Below, piece by piece: positions 15,588-30,764 of a stretch of DNA of 64,000 bases (the first letter of the stretch is position 1; every line of letters starts with the position of its first letter). The DNA is taken from contig CAMXJY010000001.1 of assembly GCA_947244325.1 (NCBI GenBank), forward strand, positions 171,322 through 235,321, read 5' to 3'. The notes below the pieces were generated by a model that did not search any database, was not told where the DNA came from, and worked only from the letters and a program-made list of their open reading frames with translations. The stretch is from an uncultured Clostridium sp. (GTDB lineage: Bacteria > Bacillota > Clostridia > TANB77 > CAG-508). A program made the translations under genes and the position numbers.

Positions 15588-16307
15588 TTATTTATTGTTT
15601 AATTTGATTGTTCCGATAGCTGCTGCTACTATTGCTAATGCTATAACAGCTACTATTGCATAATTAACACCTGTTTGAGGTAATCTTGTAGGCATTCCAT
15701 TTGCTGCTACTGGAGCTGGGTTAGCTGTTGCTACTGGAGCAGGATTAGCTACTGGAGCTGATGGTGTTGTTGTTCCATTTCCATTATCTGGTGTTGTTGC
15801 TCCGTTTCCATTTGATGATGATCCATTTCCATCTTCTGGTGTTACTGGTGTTGGATCTACTGGTGTAGGATCTACTGGTGTTGGATCTACTGGTGGCTTA
15901 ACTTCTTCAGCTTTTTTAGTTACTTCTACTGAACCATTAAATGTTCCTACTGCAGTTGCATCTACTGAACTTGTTACATTTACTGCAACGGCTGATGTTC
16001 CTTCTGCTTTAGCTGTAAAGTTAAATGTTAAAGTTTTTAATCCTCCAATTTTAGACATAGAGAAATTAATTGTTCCTGGTGTTGGTTCAAAAGTTACTTC
16101 TGGTCCACTTACAAAAGTTAAAACTTCTGGATCATATGTAACTGTTCCATCAGCGCTTTCTGCACTTCCAAAATCTACAGTTACTGCTACTGCTTTTCCT
16201 ACTTCTTCTTTAACGCTTGATACTGTTGCTGCGTTTACGTTTGTTGTAGCTGCTGCTAATACTACAAGAGCAACTACGATTGTTAAAAATAATTTTTTCA
16301 TTTTCAT
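15588..16307 (-). CDS. sortase-anchored (LPQTG) surface protein with an N-terminal cohesin-like domain and a Pro/Thr linker
   Basis: 239 aa with a signal peptide and a ~100-aa beta-sandwich with a cohesin-like VTVDFGSA...TYDPEVLTFVSG pattern. Has PVDPT x3 and PAPVA repeats, then LPQTG + hydrophobic helix + KLNNK tail. Confidence 0.65.
   Translation of the reverse strand: MKMKKLFLTIVVALVVLAAATTNVNAATVSSVKEEVGKAVAVTVDFGSAESADGTVTYDPEVLTFVSGPEVTFEPTPGTINFSMSKIGGLKTLTFNFTAKAEGTSAVAVNVTSSVDATAVGTFNGSVEVTKKAEEVKPPVDPTPVDPTPVDPTPVTPEDGNGSSSNGNGATTPDNGNGTTTPSAPVANPAPVATANPAPVAANGMPTRLPQTGVNYAIVAVIALAIVAAAIGTIKLNNK
15853..15897 (-). repeat. 3 x 15-nt tandem repeat encoding the (PVDPT)n linker
   Basis: ggatctactggtgt(t/a) repeated three times inside the LPQTG protein gene. 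Confidence 0.7.
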
Positions 16308-16366: not shown

Positions 16367-17017
16367 CTATATTTCGCGTGCTTTACATATAAGCCTTGTT
16401 ACTCCTCCAGGATTACATGTAATTAAAGTAACCTCTCTCACTTCTTCTTCAGGTGGATATAAACATTTTATATCATCTGGATTACAAGTATAAATATCAT
16501 ATATTTTATATGTAACTTTTGTTTGGGTTTCTTTGTTGATTAAATCAAATGTGTCTCCTACTTCTAATTCCTTTAATCTTTTAAGTAAATTTTTGTAGTT
16601 ATGACCTGTTATACAAAAGTTTCCAATCTCGTTTATATCTCCTCCGTAGAATTTAGTTACTGATAAATTTAATGAAGCATCATCCGTTTTTTCCAGAATA
16701 TTCTTTTTGACATCAATTTTATCAATTACTAATTCACCAATTACTTTGTAATTTCCCATTTTATTTGGTAATTCACTTACATCTACTTTTTCTAATTCTT
16801 TAACAGTATTTGTTTCAGTTATTGGCTCGTCTACTATAGTATTTGTTTCATCTGTATTTGTTGGTATGTACTCGTTATTTTTTTTACAATTCAACCAAAT
16901 GCATATTCCTACAATTACTATAATAGCTACAAGAATTAATATCGGGATTAAAAACTTATTTTTATTTGATTTTTCTTCTGCAAATCTTTTTCCCTTGTGA
17001 CTAGGCTGCTTTTCCAT
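16367..17017 (-). CDS. sortase (class B/D-type), membrane anchored
   Basis: 216 aa with an N-terminal TM, a catalytic TLITC motif, and a His region (CITGHNY). Immediately upstream of the LPQTG substrate gene. Confidence 0.75.
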   Translation of the reverse strand: MEKQPSHKGKRFAEEKSNKNKFLIPILILVAIIVIVGICIWLNCKKNNEYIPTNTDETNTIVDEPITETNTVKELEKVDVSELPNKMGNYKVIGELVIDKIDVKKNILEKTDDASLNLSVTKFYGGDINEIGNFCITGHNYKNLLKRLKELEVGDTFDLINKETQTKVTYKIYDIYTCNPDDIKCLYPPEEEVREVTLITCNPGGVTRLICKAREI

Positions 17018-18162: not shown

Positions 18163-18439
18163 AGTATTCTTTATAATTAATTCTCCTTATTTTACATATA
18201 TTAATTTGATTCTTATTTTTTAGAAAATTTAAGTTTAAAAATTTTCTAAAAAATAATGAATGATTTTTACTATATAACATTTATAACTTTTTAATATAGA
18301 ACAAATCTGAAAAAATCTCAGATTATTTCAGTAAATTTGTTCGTGTGCCAAATTTATGCAATAAATTTGTGTACAATTTTTAGCGAAGCTTTTATATAAT
18401 AGGAAAGTATCACTTTCCTATTATAAAATAAATTATAAT

Positions 18440-19010
18440 TGGTAGGAACTTAAGTAAACTTTACGGTTTAGGTCTAGCAGATTTTCTCTATTTTTCACTT
18501 TCTATTACTAGAAAGCCGTTTCCGTTTAAGAAAAATACCCCTCATGCGAGGTCGCCAGATCACCACTTAAATCCGTACCTTAATCCTTAAATTCCCATGC
18601 TTATAATTTTAAGCAAACACTCTAGAAATTTTCTTTGAGTATCCTTGCCTGCTATTAGTCTTTTTTGCAACAAAAGTTTCATAATCAAATATAAAAAAGA
18701 TATGGCCGATATCTAAATTATATTTAAACGATTAATCCCCAGTTATCACTCAAGACAGTCATTACCACTACATAACAGATTGCTATATAGGTTTACCTAT
18801 TCAAATGAATAAGTCTCAACGAAAACAGGAATCATCTGTATGCCATTACAGGCTATCCTAATTTCTTTACTCTTCAGGACCACGCAAAACTGGGCGTAAT
18901 GCGCAGACTCTTGAAAAACTTCGACTGATAATACTTTCTAGTAGATTTTTAGGCCCACCCTCATAACAGGAGTGATACACTAGAATAATGCACCAATGCG
19001 ATATATTATA
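18440..19010. ncRNA. candidate large structured non-coding RNA (unclassified); ORF-free, locally GC-rich (~40-45% against a ~25% background)
   Basis: The 1066-nt gap between genes (18163-19228) has no ORF >=60 aa. The core has CG-containing, non-repetitive, GC-enriched stretches (gcgaggtcgccagatcaccac, ccacgcaaaactgggcgtaatgcgcagactc, aggcccaccctcataacaggagtg) typical of structured RNAs in AT-rich Firmicutes. Confidence 0.3.
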
Positions 19011-19228
19011 TCAGTTTGATATTTTTTTAGCAAATCTTTTGCCAACTTCTTTTAAAATGAATTTGCATTTTGCACTTATCAAAAATTAATTTATCTCTTT
19101 GATTCTCTTTTTTTCTTTCTTATACTATATAATTCTTGTTGTAAGATTTTTTAATATTCTAAAAAAAATTAGGCTAAAATAAAGTTGTTTCTATGGAAAA
19201 TGTTATTTATGCTTTTTTATATTTTATT

Positions 19229-24323: not shown

Positions 24324-26036
24324 ATGGCATTTGATGGTTTTATCACAAAATCTATTATTTCTGAGCTTGAGCCTTCACTTGTTGGAGCAAAAGTAAATAA
24401 AGTATTTGAGCCTACAAAAAACGAAATTATTTTGGGGCTTTATAATAATGGTATAAATTACGCTTTAGAGCTTTGTGCAAATCCAGAATTTTGTAGAATT
24501 TGTTTAACTACTCACACAAAACCTAATCCACAAAATGCATACAATTTTTGTATGTTACTTAGAAAATATTTAACTGGTGGAAAAATAATAAGTATATCTA
24601 ATTATGATTTAGAAAGAACTATAGAAATAAAATTTGAAGTTTATAATGAATTAAATGATTTAGTAACAAGAAAACTATTTATAGAAATTATGAGTAGACA
24701 AAGTAATATCATTTTAACAAACGAAAAAAATATTATTATAGATACTTTAAAACATTTTGATAACAATACTAGAGAACTTTTACCAGCACATGAATATACT
24801 CCTGTGCCTACTAATAAAATTAGTTTTATTGATATAAAATCTTTTGAAGAATTTGATAATATAGTAAATTCTTCTGACGAAAGTAGTTTAGCCAAAATAC
24901 TTATGAATACTTTTATTGGTTTTAGTAAACCTTTTATAAAAGAAAATTTAAAAATTTTAGAAATTTCAGATACAGATTATTCTAATGGCGATTTAAAAAA
25001 AGTTTATAATCATATAAAAGAATTTATAAATAATATGGGAACTACTAATATTTCTTGCAAACAAATTTCTGATAAAGATTATACTCTTATTTTAAATAAA
25101 GAAAATCCTAGTGAAAATAATCTTGATATCAATTTCTTTATTGATGACTTCTATTTTAATAAAGAACAAAATTCAATTTTTATAAATTCAAGAAATAGTT
25201 TATTAAAAATTGTTTCTGCTTCTTTAAAAAAAGTATACAAAAAAATTGAAAATATAAACTCTAAACTTAAAGAATGTGATGAAATGGATACTTTTAGATT
25301 ATATGGTGAACTTTTAACAGCAAATTTATATAAAGTAAATCCTAATGAAAATCTTGAAGAAATTACAGTAGATAATTATTATGATGAAAATAAACCTGTA
25401 GTTATTCCATTAGATAAAAGCATATCTATACATAAAAACATAGAAAAATATTTTAAAAAATATAATAAATTAAAAAATGCTCTTTCTATTGTATCTGAAC
25501 AAAAAAAAGAAGCTGAAAAAGAATTAGATTATATTGAAAGTATTGTATTTAATTTAAGTAATAGTAGAACTCTTAGTGATATAAATGAAGTTTATGAAGA
25601 AATTGCAGAAAATGTTTCTACTAAAAAAGCTCTTTCTCAAAAAGAAAAAAATAAAGTTTCAAAAAAGAAAACAAAAGATACTATAATTGATTTAGAAAGT
25701 ATTGATATTGGAAAGTTCAAAATATATATTGGAAAAAATAATATTCAAAATGATTACATAAGCTTAAAATTTGCAAATCCAAATGATATATGGTTTCATA
25801 CTCAAAAAATACATGGTAGCCATGTACTTTTAAGAAATTCAGAAAACTTAGAATTTTCTGATATTCCAGAAGATATTTTATTTAAATGTGCAGTTTTAGC
25901 TAAACAAAATAGTAAAGCTTCTAATAGCTTAAATGTACCAGTAGATTACTGCTATGCTAGATATGTAAAAAAAGTTTCTGGAGCTAAACCTGGTATGGTT
26001 ATTTATAATAATTTTAAAACTATAATTGTAAAATAA
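24324..26036 (+). CDS. rqcH: Rqc2/RqcH homolog (NFACT family, fibronectin-binding protein A-like), ribosome quality control
   Basis: 570 aa. The N-terminal NFACT-N (MAFDGFITKSIISEL...), coiled-coil middle and NFACT-R C-terminal pattern match YloA/FbpA. Confidence 0.8.
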   Translation: MAFDGFITKSIISELEPSLVGAKVNKVFEPTKNEIILGLYNNGINYALELCANPEFCRICLTTHTKPNPQNAYNFCMLLRKYLTGGKIISISNYDLERTIEIKFEVYNELNDLVTRKLFIEIMSRQSNIILTNEKNIIIDTLKHFDNNTRELLPAHEYTPVPTNKISFIDIKSFEEFDNIVNSSDESSLAKILMNTFIGFSKPFIKENLKILEISDTDYSNGDLKKVYNHIKEFINNMGTTNISCKQISDKDYTLILNKENPSENNLDINFFIDDFYFNKEQNSIFINSRNSLLKIVSASLKKVYKKIENINSKLKECDEMDTFRLYGELLTANLYKVNPNENLEEITVDNYYDENKPVVIPLDKSISIHKNIEKYFKKYNKLKNALSIVSEQKKEAEKELDYIESIVFNLSNSRTLSDINEVYEEIAENVSTKKALSQKEKNKVSKKKTKDTIIDLESIDIGKFKIYIGKNNIQNDYISLKFANPNDIWFHTQKIHGSHVLLRNSENLEFSDIPEDILFKCAVLAKQNSKASNSLNVPVDYCYARYVKKVSGAKPGMVIYNNFKTIIVK

Positions 26037-26037
26037 A

Positions 26038-26080
26038 ACACAAGGTTCTCACTAAGAAGTGCTGAACCTTGTGTTTTTGT
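26038..26080 (+). terminator. rqcH rho-independent terminator ACAAGGTTC-loop-GAACCTTGT + T-run
   Basis: 9-bp perfect stem followed by GTTTTTGTT. Confidence 0.75.
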
Positions 26081-26102
26081 TACATTGCATATTGAAGGAA
26101 TC

Positions 26103-26687
26103 TTAGCTCACGTATTGCACTGTACTCGTCATTTTGTCCATCAACCAGTTTTCCGTGTCAACCACTTTATTTGGGTCTAAAGCAACCCACAATGGAGAAA
26201 TTCCCATCATGGCTATCATTGACTCCGACTTGTTGGCGATAGCCTTCTCAAACTGCTCCACACTTTGGTTTTTCGGAACAAATGTCGTTGATTTGATGAC
26301 AATAAGCTTGCATTTTTCTGGCCTCTCTGATATCACCTGAGTAATCCACTCTTTACGAGCCTTCTTTGTCATCATTCTTTCAACCGTATACAGCTTCGCA
26401 TGTGCTTCTTTTACTTTGTCACACTCCTGATCAATCATCTCCATTGCCTGCTTGCGGTTTTTAAACTTAAATTCGGGCATCTGGTATACCTCTGCTATAC
26501 TGAATTCTGCTCCCCAAGCTTTTTTCAGCTGGTCATTAATATATTTAAACAGAGTATCTAATTCATCCAGTTTTTTGCAAAAGTACCCGTATTGAGACCG
26601 AACCTCGCACCATCTTTTTTCAAAATGCTTTTTTCCAAAAAATGGTTTAATGTTATTTGCTGCCAAAAGTTCCTCAAAATTTCTCAT
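26103..26687 (-). CDS. hypothetical protein, compositionally foreign (~40% GC), function unknown
   Basis: 194-aa ORF, Trp-rich, with no family I can recognise. Flanked by convergent terminators of rqcH and ackA. Its codon usage (in-frame CGG, GCC, CTC, CCG) differs from its neighbours. Confidence 0.5.
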   Translation of the reverse strand: MRNFEELLAANNIKPFFGKKHFEKRWCEVRSQYGYFCKKLDELDTLFKYINDQLKKAWGAEFSIAEVYQMPEFKFKNRKQAMEMIDQECDKVKEAHAKLYTVERMMTKKARKEWITQVISERPEKCKLIVIKSTTFVPKNQSVEQFEKAIANKSESMIAMMGISPLWVALDPNKVVDTENWLMDKMTSTVQYVS

Positions 26688-26778
26688 GTTTCATCCCTCT
26701 TCATCTACTTAAGAAAATTACAGTATGCGAAAAAAATTACTTAATACACTCTTCGCAATACTATAACAATAAATTAGT

Positions 26779-26817
26779 TGCAAATTTATTATACCATATT
26801 TTATGTAAATTTGCAAA
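26779..26817. promoter_or_regulatory. 10-bp perfect inverted repeat TTGCAAATTT-N19-AAATTTGCAA upstream of the foreign gene
   Basis: Perfect palindrome arms about 100 nt upstream of the 26687 start. Candidate operator. Confidence 0.3.
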
Positions 26818-26857
26818 TTAAGCTAAAAAATCACTCTCATAAAAAAAGAACAAAAAT

Positions 26858-26906
26858 GTGGACGATTCAGTATAGTTTTGTCTTTTGCATGTTAAATATC
26901 GTCCAC
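26858..26906. terminator. bidirectional terminator GTGGACGAT-N31-ATCGTCCAC downstream of ackA (26961)
   Basis: Same 9-bp stem as the pgi terminator. T-runs on both sides. Confidence 0.55.
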
Positions 26907-26960
26907 TTTTGTTCTTATATAGATTCTTAAATATTTATAATATAAGTTTTCACCAATATT

Positions 26961-28154
26961 TTATTTTGTTACTAATTCATATGTGTCCTTTGCTATTATT
27001 AATTCCTCATTTGTTGGAATTATATATATTTTTACTTTAGAATCTTCTGTTGAAATACATTTTTCTTTTCCTCTTGTTTTATTTGCTTCTAAGTCTAATT
27101 TTACTCCAAATGGTTCTAAATATTTGCAAACTCTTTCTCTTGTTTCAATTCCATTTTCTCCAACTCCACCAGCAAAAGTTAAAACATCTAATCCACCAAG
27201 TGAAACTACATATTGTCCTATATATTGAGCTATCTTATATGCTTGACTTTCAAGTGTAAGTATAGATCTTTGGTCTCCCATGTTGTATCCATCTTCAATA
27301 TCTTTATAGTCTAATGATACTCCAGATACTCCCCATGCTCCTGATTGTTTATTTAATATCTCTTCTATATCTTCTGGTCCAAGATTATCTCTTTTCATAA
27401 TATATGGAATTATTGCTGGATCTATATCTCCACATCTTGTTGCCATAGGAATACCGGCTAGTGGTGTTAATCCCATACTTGTATCAACAGATTTCCCACC
27501 ATCTATTGCACATATTGATGCTCCTTGACCTAAATGACAATTTATTACTTTTAAATTTTCTTTATTTTCTCCTATAAGTTCTGCTACTCTTTGATCTACA
27601 TATCTATGGCTAGTTCCATGAAATCCATATTTACGAATTTTATAACTTGTATAATATCTATATGGTATTTGATATACATATGCTTTTGCTGGCATTGTTT
27701 GATGAAATGCTGTATCAAATACTGCTACCATTGGAACATTTGGAAGAGCATTTCTTGCAGCCTTTATTCCTGCTACTCCCGCTGGATTATGAAGTGGTGC
27801 TAAATCAATACATTTTTCAATCTCACTAATAACTTCATCATTTATTATAACTGACTGGCTAAACATTTCTCCACCATGAACTATTCTGTGTCCTACTGCT
27901 CCTATCTCTTCTAAACTGTTTATTAAATTATATTCAGGTTTTTGTAATACTTCTAAAACAAAGCTTATTGCTTCATCGTAATCTCTAGCAATATGCAATA
28001 ATTCTTCTTTGTTTCCATTTATATTTAATTTAAGTGTTGTTTTCATTCCACCTATTCTTTCAAAATTTCCTTTTGCCATTCTTTCATTTGTATCCATATT
28101 TATAAGTTGAAATTTAAGTGATGAACTTCCACAATTTAAAACTAATATTTTCAT
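26961..28154 (-). CDS. ackA: acetate kinase (copy 1)
   Basis: 397 aa with MKILVLNCGSSSLKFQL and acetate/propionate kinase family motifs. Confidence 0.9.
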   Translation of the reverse strand: MKILVLNCGSSSLKFQLINMDTNERMAKGNFERIGGMKTTLKLNINGNKEELLHIARDYDEAISFVLEVLQKPEYNLINSLEEIGAVGHRIVHGGEMFSQSVIINDEVISEIEKCIDLAPLHNPAGVAGIKAARNALPNVPMVAVFDTAFHQTMPAKAYVYQIPYRYYTSYKIRKYGFHGTSHRYVDQRVAELIGENKENLKVINCHLGQGASICAIDGGKSVDTSMGLTPLAGIPMATRCGDIDPAIIPYIMKRDNLGPEDIEEILNKQSGAWGVSGVSLDYKDIEDGYNMGDQRSILTLESQAYKIAQYIGQYVVSLGGLDVLTFAGGVGENGIETRERVCKYLEPFGVKLDLEANKTRGKEKCISTEDSKVKIYIIPTNEELIIAKDTYELVTK

Positions 28155-28291: not shown

Positions 28292-29491
28292 CTATTTTCC
28301 TTCTACAATTCTCTTTGTATCTCTTGCTATAACCATTTCTTCATCTGTTGGAATTACAAATGCTGCAATTTTAGAATCATCGGTAGAAATTTTCTTTTCT
28401 TCACTTCTTACATTATTTCTTTCTAAGTCTAACTTTAATCCCATCCATTCTAAGTTTTCACAAATTTTCTTTCTAATGTTTATTTGATTTTCACCTATAC
28501 CACCTGTAAATACAACTGCGTCAATTCCTTTTAATGATACTGCATATTTTGCAACAAATTGAGCTATAATTTTTGTAAATAATTCTATTGCAACTTTAGC
28601 TTTTGGTTTATCATCTTCATATGAAGCAAGTTCTATTTCTCTAAAGTCTGGATTCAATCCTGTTATACCATATAATCCTGATTTTTTATTTAATACAGTT
28701 GTTACTTCTTTAGTAGTTAAATTTTCTCTATCCATTATTTCTGTTACAACAGCTGGGTCTAAATCTCCTGAACGTGTAACCATTGCAATTCCACTTAAAG
28801 GAGAAAGTCCCATTGATGTTTCTATAGATTTTCCACCATCTATAGCACATATTGATGCTCCTTGACCAATATGGCATGTAACCATTTTTATTTCTTCTAT
28901 AGGTTTTTCCATTAATTTTGCACATAATCTTGAAACATATTGATGAGATGTACCATGAAATCCATATTTTCTAATTCCATATTTTTCATAATATTCATAA
29001 GGAATTGGATATAAATAATTTTCTTGTGGGATTGTTTGATGAAATGCTGTATCAAATACACCAACCATAGGAACTCCTGGCATAGCTTTTTGGCAAGCTC
29101 TTATTCCACGTATTGTTGCTGGATTATGAAGTGGTGCAAGTGGTGAACATGAATCATATTTTGCAATTACATCTTCATCTATTCTAACTGATTCACTAAA
29201 TTTTTCTCCACCATGACATAATCTATGTCCTACTGCAGATATTTCTGATAAATCTTTTATTACTCCATAATCATTATGAACTAATTGTTCTAAAACTATT
29301 TTTAAAGCCTCTTCATGATTCATTACAGGAACTTTTGTAACATATTTTTCTCCATTAACTTTATGAGTAACAAAAGCTTCTTGTTCTCCTATTCTTTCAA
29401 AATTTCCTTTTGCTAAAAGTTTTTCACCTTCCATATCTATTAATTGATATTTTAATGATGAACTTCCACAGTTTACTACTAAAATTTTCAT
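28292..29491 (-). CDS. ackA: acetate kinase (copy 2, divergent paralog, ~55% identity to copy 1)
   Basis: 399 aa with MKILVVNCGSSSLKYQL. Same family, clearly diverged. Confidence 0.9.
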   Translation of the reverse strand: MKILVVNCGSSSLKYQLIDMEGEKLLAKGNFERIGEQEAFVTHKVNGEKYVTKVPVMNHEEALKIVLEQLVHNDYGVIKDLSEISAVGHRLCHGGEKFSESVRIDEDVIAKYDSCSPLAPLHNPATIRGIRACQKAMPGVPMVGVFDTAFHQTIPQENYLYPIPYEYYEKYGIRKYGFHGTSHQYVSRLCAKLMEKPIEEIKMVTCHIGQGASICAIDGGKSIETSMGLSPLSGIAMVTRSGDLDPAVVTEIMDRENLTTKEVTTVLNKKSGLYGITGLNPDFREIELASYEDDKPKAKVAIELFTKIIAQFVAKYAVSLKGIDAVVFTGGIGENQINIRKKICENLEWMGLKLDLERNNVRSEEKKISTDDSKIAAFVIPTDEEMVIARDTKRIVEGK

Positions 29492-29672: not shown

Positions 29673-30665
29673 TTATTGAGCTTGGACAGCAGTAATAGCC
29701 ACAACCCCCGCAATATCCTCAGCAGAACATCCTCTTGATAAATCATTAACTGGTCTTGCAATACCTTGGCAAAGTGGTCCATATGCTTCTGCCTTTCCTA
29801 ATCTTTGAGTTAATTTATATCCTATATTTCCAGCATTCAAATCTGGGAATATTAATGTATTAGCATTTCCTGCAACATTACTATTGGGAGCTTTACTTTT
29901 TGCTACTTCTGGAACTATTGCTGCATCTAATTGTAATTCTCCATCTACTTTTAATTCTGGGTATTTTTCTTTTATCATGTTAGTTGCATCTATAACTTTT
30001 TGAGTTAATTCTGACTTTGCACTTCCCATTGTAGAATAAGAAAGCATTGCTACTTTTGATTCTTTTCCTACTAATTGTTCAAAGCTTTTACTTGAAGAAT
30101 TAGCTATTTCTACAAGTTCTTCTGAACTAGGATTTTGATTTAATCCACAATCTCCAAAAACAAATACTCCATCTTCTCCATATTCGCATTCTGGTACTAC
30201 CATTAAAAAGAATGCTGATACTAATTTAGTTCCAGGTGCTGTTTTTAAAATTTGAAGTGCTGGTCTTAAAGTATCTGATGTTGAATGAATTGCACCTGAA
30301 ACAAGTCCATCTGCTTCTTCTAATTTTACCATCATCATACCAAAATACACTTCATCTTTTATTAATTCTTCTGCTTTTTCTAAGGTCATACCTTTTTCTT
30401 TTCTAAGTTCATATAATTTCTCTGCATATACTTTACTTTTTTCTGATTTTAAAGGATTTATAATTGTTGCTTTTGAAATATCTAATCCCTCATCATTTGC
30501 CATTTTGTTTATATTTTCTTCATTTCCTATTAGAATTACATCAGCATATCCTTCTTTTAAAACTGTAGCTGTAGCTTTAATTGTTCTAATATCACTAGCT
30601 TCTGGTAATACAATTTTTTTTATGTCTTTTTTTGCTCTTTGTTTTATCGTATCAATAAAGTTCAT
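29673..30665 (-). CDS. pta: phosphate acetyltransferase
   Basis: About 330 aa from the internal Met (MNFIDTIKQRAKK...); the ORF extends 9 codons further upstream. Pta family pattern throughout. Confidence 0.9.
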   Translation of the reverse strand: MNFIDTIKQRAKKDIKKIVLPEASDIRTIKATATVLKEGYADVILIGNEENINKMANDEGLDISKATIINPLKSEKSKVYAEKLYELRKEKGMTLEKAEELIKDEVYFGMMMVKLEEADGLVSGAIHSTSDTLRPALQILKTAPGTKLVSAFFLMVVPECEYGEDGVFVFGDCGLNQNPSSEELVEIANSSSKSFEQLVGKESKVAMLSYSTMGSAKSELTQKVIDATNMIKEKYPELKVDGELQLDAAIVPEVAKSKAPNSNVAGNANTLIFPDLNAGNIGYKLTQRLGKAEAYGPLCQGIARPVNDLSRGCSAEDIAGVVAITAVQAQ

Positions 30666-30764
30666 TATTTTTTCCTCCATAAATCTAATCAAAATAAATT
30701 TATTATTAGCATTTAAAATTAATTAATTCTAATAATATTTTATTAAATAACTTGCTTAAATCAA

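Follow-up and report, generated by a model that had tools for sequence, protein, structure and literature searches.

A candidate exchangeable single-gene cassette between rqcH and ackA of an uncultured gut Clostridium, and the undescribed protein family that it encodes

Genes that behave as self-contained expression units are well known from lambdoid phages, in which morons (autonomous promoter-gene-terminator units) lie between conserved prophage genes. Here we describe a GC-rich islet with a single open reading frame (ORF) that lies between rqcH and ackA in a 64-kb stretch of DNA (hereafter the window) from an uncultured gut Clostridium near Candidatus Scatovivens. Like a phage moron, the islet has its own promoter, a single ORF and its own terminator, is of odd composition, and is located between genes that are adjacent in relatives. 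Unlike a moron, it resides in the chromosome between housekeeping genes, searches at the DNA, protein, and fold levels gave no match to phages or viruses, and its regulatory module (promoter spacer and leader) is conserved family-wide across sites. Its architecture is closest to that of a phage moron, but it lacks the defining context, as it is not located in a phage.

Two further systems bear comparison. As in variable hotspots and defence islands, a fixed intergenic site has alternative contents (mostly empty, the family in three species, and other cargo in contigs L014, L020, and L036), and deeply different alleles lie between near-identical flanks; unlike in those, the cassette is a single 0.6-kb gene with no integrase, no neighbouring defence gene, and no known defence domain. 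Orphan immunity genes of polymorphic-toxin and bacteriocin systems share with it a small, cytoplasmic, apparently non-catalytic protein, tandem paralogues, inter-strain polymorphism, and foreign composition, but no toxin gene is adjacent at any of eight sites, there is no Imm- or SUKH-type match, and the cassettes are solitary or paired rather than arranged in arrays. We regard the islet as an accessory cassette in a chromosomal hotspot, and it matches no described hotspot or orphan-immunity family. It reads as a self-contained unit, in which a predicted strong promoter of the sigma-A type, whose spacer holds a box specific to the family, is followed by a hairpin leader of ~95 nt, an ORF of ~195 aa, and a terminator. 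Sequence comparisons indicate that, since insertion, exchange or recombination of its coding part has by far outpaced that of the flanks.

Divergent alleles at fixed chromosomal sites

The rqcH-ackA gap measures 31-94 bp and holds one bidirectional terminator hairpin in about 15 related species, whose RqcH is 66-75% identical. This supports the preliminary description of this locus, made from the letters alone, in treating the islet as inserted when compared with the wider clade. Family members occupy the gap only in the two closest species (RqcH 90-91% and AckA 97-98% identical), with one cassette in L010 and two in L040, and no additional copies were detected in the window or at ~60 other rqcH loci. 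Because both junctions (on the left, GTTTTTGTTACAT) and the promoter are common to the window, the conspecific contig L002, and L010, the sequences point to a single insertion into the bidirectional terminator, in the ancestor of three sister species and before they split. Homologues are not at this site in all relatives and no housekeeping annotation applies to the gene, so that neither outcome named in the preliminary description as refuting it was observed.

This distribution bears directly on the earlier suggestion that this strain recently gained, in a one-off transfer, a plasmid- or phage-borne gene for defence or resistance. Such a transfer would account for the foreign composition and codon usage and for the empty site in more distant relatives. 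We consider it very unlikely, as seven conspecific metagenome contigs (protein allele 86% identical) and the two sister species (proteins only 43-47% identical) have the site filled and share its junctions, which contradicts both "recent" and "this strain". In addition, the copies anticipated on plasmids or phages did not appear, with no nucleotide or protein match among 72,556 plasmids and 50,697 phages and no relative in IMG/VR, and no resistance or defence family matches the protein.

Since the insertion, the gene has diverged much further than its neighbours. Between sister species, synonymous divergence (dS) is 1.17-1.60 in the cassette gene versus 0.29-0.37 in rqcH and ackA, and within the species, where the flank DNA of the seven contigs is 97-100% identical, it is 0.26 versus 0.045-0.063 in the flanks. 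The differences are unevenly placed along the gene: of 55 nucleotide differences from L002, 1 falls in the first 150 nt and 45 in nt 151-470 (our own binomial estimate for so few in the first 150 nt is about 2e-6), and dS reaches 0.40 in a mosaic segment (Table 1), compared with 0.16 elsewhere in the gene and 0.05-0.06 in the flanking sequence. Within-species divergence thus has the pattern of a recombination mosaic, not of even divergence. A dS excess of 3-5 times the flanks is about what would be expected of out-of-equilibrium GC-rich sequence under the AT-biased mutation of the host and is not by itself proof of allele import; such proof can come from the intragenic mosaic and from the sharp breakpoints at the murE site described below. 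Mutagenesis of the diversity-generating retroelement type was also considered and rejected, as the inter-strain substitutions are mostly transitions, in both directions, and not adenine-specific.

To place the rqcH-ackA copies in the wider family, the DNA was read for 17 family genes at eight chromosomal sites, which are different housekeeping loci in AT-rich gut Clostridia and differ by lineage: rqcH/ackA (including this copy), murE/2-hydroxyacid dehydrogenase inside the dcw cluster (a tandem pair), ypeB/vanW, upstream of the spoIIA operon, DUF4130/ABC transporter, a gap next to spoVT, purD/purN, and one short contig. The clearest replacement occurs at the murE site, where MurE, the dehydrogenase, and a penicillin-binding protein are 98-99.7% identical between contigs but the two cassette proteins just 29% and 41%; on a third contig, the flanks are 98.5-99.6% identical and the cassette proteins differ by 10% and 40%. 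DNA identity there drops from 92-100% to ~45% across the two cassettes, over a stretch that begins just ahead of the first promoter and ends shortly beyond the second terminator. A rough neighbour-joining tree groups the rqcH-site alleles into one clade and the "b" alleles of the murE site into another, and the "a" alleles lie on unrelated branches. Taken together, these comparisons indicate that in-place divergence or exchange and outright cassette replacement both occur. Tandem cassettes were found at the rqcH-ackA site of L040 and at the murE site.

No conserved partner gene accompanies the family, as the small ORFs beside some members are unrelated to one another. Among these neighbours, a ribbon-helix-helix-like ORF of 59 aa (L090, 4544-4723) adjoins one member, and large ORFs with a prepilin-type N-terminus (...GITLISLVVTIIILLILAG...) stand beside two members (L090, 3300-4382; L099, 11421-12686); neither kind occurs at the other sites.

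The rqcH-ackA gap of three other species holds unrelated cargo of host-like GC, namely a lipoprotein-like ORF of 246 aa (L014, 7839-8579), a phosphatase-like ORF of 235 aa (L020, 3940-4647), and three small secreted or membrane ORFs (L036, 7915-9861), and the gap is therefore a general gain site. On the ackA side of the window, two tandem acetate kinase paralogues (26961-28154 and 28292-29491, both on the minus strand; ~68% DNA identity) form a pair that is kept in the sister species, and they are followed by a phosphotransacetylase-like gene (pta; 29673-30692, minus strand) that was assigned by eye from its translation.

Promoter, leader, and borders of the cassette

The coordinates of the cassette and its parts are given in Table 1. 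As first described, the islet is located between two terminators, although neither bracketing hairpin was called by a simple terminator scan (loops >8 nt). The left one is common to rqcH on the plus strand and the cassette gene on the minus strand, the loop of the ackA-side one varies among strains, and each family unit ends in its own terminator. Contig L001, from a metagenome-assembled genome, is 99.5% identical to window positions 25009-26919, after which a NUDIX-like gene on the other strand replaces ackA; the switch (L001 1-496 against window 26917-26919), at the ackA-side hairpin, reflects either a rearrangement there or an assembly chimera.

Table 1. Positions of the cassette and its parts in the window
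Feature	Position	Strand	Basis or remark
rqcH-ackA intergenic interval, 927 bp, cassette-filled	26034..26960	.	compared with about 15 related species
Terminator hairpin, 14-bp perfect arms 26035-26048 / 26064-26077, 15-nt loop, T-runs on both strands	26035..26077	.	inverted-repeat search
Cassette gene, undescribed family, 194 aa	26103..26687	-	ORF, composition, homologues, AF2 model, dN/dS
Mosaic segment, ~codons 51-142	26225..26537	-	25/28 amino-acid differences from L002 allele
5' leader, ~95 nt	26688..26781	-	transcription start inferred from -10 element
Shine-Dalgarno AGAGGGA, 6 nt ahead of ATG	26694..26700	-	read from sequence
Leader hairpin (centroid structure of leader)	26717..26767	-	folding z = -1.98
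Palindrome, 11-bp perfect arms 26778-26788 / 26806-26816	26778..26816	.	spans -35 element and transcript start
Promoter: -35 TTGCAA 26811-26816, 17-nt spacer, TG 26795-26796, -10 TATAAT 26788-26793	26788..26816	-	sequence, weight matrix
Conserved spacer box TTTACATAAA	26800-26809	-	within promoter spacer
ackA-side imperfect terminator hairpin, arms 26846-26866 / 26898-26916	26846..26916	.	inverted-repeat search

The upstream palindrome reported at the outset is real and slightly longer than stated (perfect arms of 11 bp, not 10). It wraps a near-consensus minus-strand promoter (TTGCAA-17-TGgTATAAT) and is not kept in the sister species L010. It represents the promoter region and transcript start of the gene, not a mobility site.

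The promoter is recognizably that of the family. A consensus that includes the spacer, AATTTG(c/t)nAATTTACATAAAATATGGTATAAT, precedes family genes at eight sites, and the part adjoining the -10 element is the TRTG "-16" element of Gram-positive promoters. A weight matrix gave 33-46 bits upstream of nearly all family genes read (~22 for the divergent promoters of L080 and L092), at most 24.6 bits elsewhere in 1.1 Mb of host DNA, and one match in the 64-kb window; it was built from 12 sites and also scored on them, the informative part being the lack of other matches. The spacer holds a TTTAYRTAAA box whose centre is CA or TG, as the site of a dimer would have. This box agrees at 12 of 15 positions with the CodY consensus AATTTTCWGAAAATT, so that CodY is one lead, and a literature search on the box returned nothing relevant. 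Among 2.9 million viral contigs, 8 also have the 22-nt promoter core ahead of unrelated genes, which is about the number expected by chance in a rough calculation; these matches are probably convergence on a strong promoter. Among them, contigs L102 and L105 (1690-1711 and 2047-2068) as well as L104 and L107 combine the core with good -35 elements ahead of unrelated phage genes, one of which is possibly RecA-like.

Downstream of the promoter, the leader, counted from the first base past the -10 element up to the ATG, measures 75-107 nt in all members read. Its central hairpin recurs at the corresponding position in other members, with stems of different sequence. The folding z-score against shuffled sequences averages about -1.8 over 12 leaders (range +0.56 to -4.70), and RNAalifold found 14 base pairs in 7 leaders, 7 of these pairs with compensatory changes, and a covariation term that is not favourable. 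A conserved structured leader hairpin is thus suggested by these comparisons.

Such a leader invites a reading in which the cassette is a selfish addiction or toxin unit, whose protein would be harmful when over-made, would be held in check by the structured leader or by rare codons, and would spread since its loss is costly. The unit is autonomous, its long structured leader lies ahead of the ribosome-binding site, rare codons make up 31% of the degenerate codons, and scattered intergenic sites, duplications, and foreign composition would also be expected of it. We nevertheless regard this as quite unlikely. No antitoxin gene is present, covariation support for the hairpin is weak, and the protein has no conserved catalytic residues and no match to ToxN, AbiQ, or any other toxin family. 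Unlike type III toxin-antitoxin systems (ToxIN, AbiQ), the leader has no tandem antitoxin RNA repeats, as only an imperfect 11-nt repeat in two copies (26711/26730) and no array was found in it, and the predicted fold is a helical hairpin joined to an alpha/beta domain.

The borders of the unit bear on a further possibility, that of a small mobile element or its remnant, whether IS200-like, similar to a miniature inverted-repeat transposable element (MITE), or an integron-type cassette whose recombinase would be encoded elsewhere. A length of ~0.8-0.9 kb with one ORF, the many unrelated intergenic sites, a hairpin per unit whose structure is conserved more than its sequence, and a direct repeat of 9 bp (TTTTGTTAC) with one copy at each border (26075 and 26964) would all fit. 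The repeat was unconvincing as a transposon target duplication, as the right copy belongs to the coding end of ackA and is absent in L010, and five exact 9-mers recur in this 1-kb AT-rich stretch. Terminal inverted repeats of the cassette were not found, and neither a transposase or recombinase family match nor a catalytic motif was detected; for insertion sequences (IS200/IS605) in particular, no Pfam or NCBIfam transposase matches the window protein or any of 47 relatives.

Integron cassettes are also single-ORF units that are exchanged at a fixed place and whose hairpin shape is kept more than its sequence, but this cassette has its own promoter, its hairpin lies 5' of the ORF and inside the transcript, between promoter and ORF rather than at the cassette end, and attC core sites were not seen. 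On the 3' side of the ORF there is just the terminator hairpin shared with rqcH and no attC site, and no integron integrase is encoded among the ORFs at 22.7-30.7 kb. The earlier remark that no integrase or mobility gene is present held for those same ORFs, to which that screen was confined. Overall, we find a mobile element of any of these kinds highly improbable.

Composition of the gene and predicted fold of its protein

The cassette gene has 39.3% GC against a window mean of 25.9%, in agreement with the contrast of about 40% to 25% first noted, and the islet is the GC peak of the whole 64 kb (top 585-nt stretch 0.403, starting at 26037; z = 3.8; 0.25% of stretches equally high). The contrast lies mainly at third codon positions, where GC (GC3) is 45.6% compared with 7.9% in rqcH and 9.5% in ackA. 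Rare codons, defined as those used for <10% of their synonymous family in host ORFs, account for 31% of degenerate codons in the cassette gene versus 4-5% in rqcH, ackA, and pgi, and codon choice is dominated by G-ending codons. Codon usage is thus unlike that of the host, as proposed, with CGG (1), CCG (1), and GCC (2) in frame; CTC, which had been listed with them, is absent in frame (0), and CTG occurs 4 times. Translational selection was rejected as a source of the high GC3, since pgi and ackA, a glycolytic and a fermentation gene in the same window, keep AT-rich host codons (ackA GC3 as above). GC of at least 36% recurs in just one other part of the window (15588-16307 and 16367-17017, minus strand), which codes for an LPQTG-anchored surface protein of 239 aa whose repeat (PVDPTPVDPTPVDPTP) is rich in Pro, Thr, and Val; a sortase-like gene adjoins it, and the GC content there is due to amino-acid composition.

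High GC is a property of the family and poses a puzzle. In the 17 genes, GC is 35-48% and GC3 31-57%, in hosts of 26-32% GC with a GC3 of 8-30% in neighbouring genes. By our own decay estimate, which assumes a host equilibrium GC3 of ~8-10% and a flank dS of ~0.3 between the window and L010, an excess of GC3 under neutrality would be expected to fall to about one third per lineage since insertion, and the present values of 46% (window) and 37% (L010) would need an impossible starting value. The alleles have therefore either been re-imported from a GC-richer pool, or their GC is held by selection or biased conversion. No GC-richer donor pool was found in plasmids, phages, viral contigs, or protein searches.

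GC-rich islands in AT-rich Firmicutes are often RNAs, and a structured RNA with a spurious ORF had to be considered, with OLE RNA only 7 kb away. Here the evidence runs the other way to the point of contradiction. Rfam 15 returned nothing relevant in the islet (search of 25900-27100) at the gathering score or at E values up to 1, frame and length are kept in 66 representatives, the predicted structure is of high confidence (see below), and the ratio of nonsynonymous to synonymous divergence (dN/dS) is 0.26-0.38 in three allele comparisons. Because of these ratios, the ORF is protein-coding and under purifying selection, and an RNA reading has next to no probability. The OLE RNA itself is full-length (RF01071; 277.7 bits, model positions 1-616; window 18423-19012, minus strand) and fits an anaerobic Firmicute host.

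The protein belongs to no recognized family, as had been supposed: the window protein had no match above noise in Pfam, NCBIfam, PHROG, or PADLOC. Searches of 47 relatives against Pfam, PHROGs, and PADLOC gave nothing consistent (in PADLOC-DB 2.0, just two unrelated single hits), a profile search of Protein Data Bank (PDB) sequences returned coiled-coil noise only (E >= 0.15), and nothing points to a role in drug resistance. Relatives are few. A word-indexed search of 5.8 billion proteins gave 3 and then 10, and the rest required an exhaustive HMMER search of 1.84 billion representatives, which recovered 66 family representatives, none of them named and most of ~180-210 aa; the full family alignment is too divergent to serve for locus finding. 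The second cassette of L040 (7809-8774, minus strand) encodes a longer protein of 321 aa, in which an in-frame duplication has doubled the N-terminal half of the family domain (ENNIKKPMTALG... and ENNIKKPRTALG...), and P0022 and P0028 are similarly doubled.

With the alignment of 47 sequences, AlphaFold2 (AF2) gave a model with a predicted local distance difference test (pLDDT) score of 96.8 and a predicted template modelling (pTM) score of 0.84, compared with a pLDDT of 51.7 from 4 sequences. In the model, a short N-terminal helix is followed by two antiparallel helices of 40 residues (19-58 and 78-120) with a 19-residue tip between them, forming a hairpin 60 angstrom long, and the base is a small alpha/beta domain made of the N-terminus and residues 121-194, whose C-terminal part is beta-alpha-beta-beta-beta. 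The confidently predicted fold had no match, and the family is undescribed. The conserved positions among the 47 members are nearly all F, W, Y, L, I, V, A, or P, with N11, R111, C126, and S188 the only polar ones; W114 is invariant, and F4, W58, and F75 are >90% conserved. The initial label "Trp-rich" stands for 5 tryptophans in 194 residues (2.6%), all at positions at which tryptophan is the majority residue, in 81-100% of the 47 members. Because there are no conserved catalytic-type residues among these members, the core is aromatic and hydrophobic, and variability peaks in the distal halves of both long helices, the protein is most likely a stoichiometric binding protein, not an enzyme.

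A composition held by selection would also fit a lineage-specific host gene with an ordinary role (e.g., a stationary-phase or sporulation regulator or a structural protein) and selected codon usage. In that case, rare G-ending codons would throttle translation or stabilize the mRNA, and diversity would reflect relaxed constraint and ordinary recombination. The hosts carry sporulation genes, and at 4 of the 8 sites the cassette has a sporulation or cell-wall locus next to it (the spoIIA operon, spoVT, ypeB/sleB, and the dcw cluster with spoVD/spoVE-like genes). Human-gut metagenomes contain one allele class that is both common and stable, conservation of promoter and leader resembles that of a regulon member, and a GC excess in 17 of 17 genes, in every host, is explained more easily by selection than by 17 recent imports. 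Against this, most related species are without the gene at rqcH-ackA (the one site examined for this), only 66 representatives exist in 1.84 billion proteins, the sites differ between lineages, dS is 3-5 times that of the flanks, and alleles 29% identical in flanks 98-99.7% identical are unlike the result of relaxed constraint. We therefore think an ordinary host gene unlikely.

A possible role in immunity or defence

Allelic polymorphism at fixed sites, as read from the compared sequences, fits defence or immunity. In view of the deeply diverged alleles maintained at fixed sites, the tandem paralogues, and the foreign composition, the most likely partner of the protein would be a fast-evolving antagonist, which would make this an immunity- or defence-type gene, as was first listed among its possible roles. 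We propose that the variable helical hairpin may meet such an antagonist, either a phage protein or an incoming toxin, and that the strong promoter, with its pseudo-palindromic spacer box, may provide high expression gated by a dimeric repressor. For the statement as a whole, a cassette exchanged at fixed sites that encodes a stoichiometric binder of the immunity or defence type, we put the chances at about even, the cassette and its exchange being much more secure than the function.

Several observations weigh against this proposal. Homology gives no support to a role in immunity or defence, as no known immunity or defence family in PADLOC, PHROG, or Pfam matches any of the 47 members. No mobility, phage, toxin, or defence gene lies beside any of the eight sites, where the neighbours are housekeeping and sporulation genes. 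dN/dS is never above 1. Diversity seems to lie between allele classes rather than in continuous hypervariation, as cluster P0079 (46 members) is an allele class that is stable and common in human-gut data, with 11 aligned members that differ at few positions. A conflict-gene model also leaves the lasting GC excess of all members unexplained unless their alleles come from a GC-richer pool. Finally, the operator reading of the spacer box is weak and a lead only, because the matches of the 22-nt promoter core in viral contigs are about the number expected by chance in a rough calculation.

Going further, these cassettes could represent an unrecognized class, in which autonomous units of AT-rich gut Clostridia are exchanged whole at fixed housekeeping sites, balancing selection maintains deeply diverged alleles, and the product is a single-gene immunity or defence factor with a new fold; the GC-rich, rare-codon ORF and the promoter-leader module would then be part of its regulation or movement and not the leftover of a recent transfer. 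We offer this broader view tentatively and hold it to be doubtful on present evidence.

Whatever its function, the locus illustrates that a GC-rich islet between convergent genes in a very AT-rich genome does not have to be an RNA or a recent transfer. It also presents a puzzle, namely alleles 29-47% identical between flanks 90-100% identical, with a conserved regulatory module and a GC excess that is expected to have decayed under the mutation bias of the host, and the two explanations of allele replacement and selection on composition can be tested directly against each other with existing metagenomes. If this is a conflict gene, it would add a candidate family of single-gene, new-fold immunity or defence factors from uncultured, small-genome gut Clostridia, which defence catalogues barely cover.

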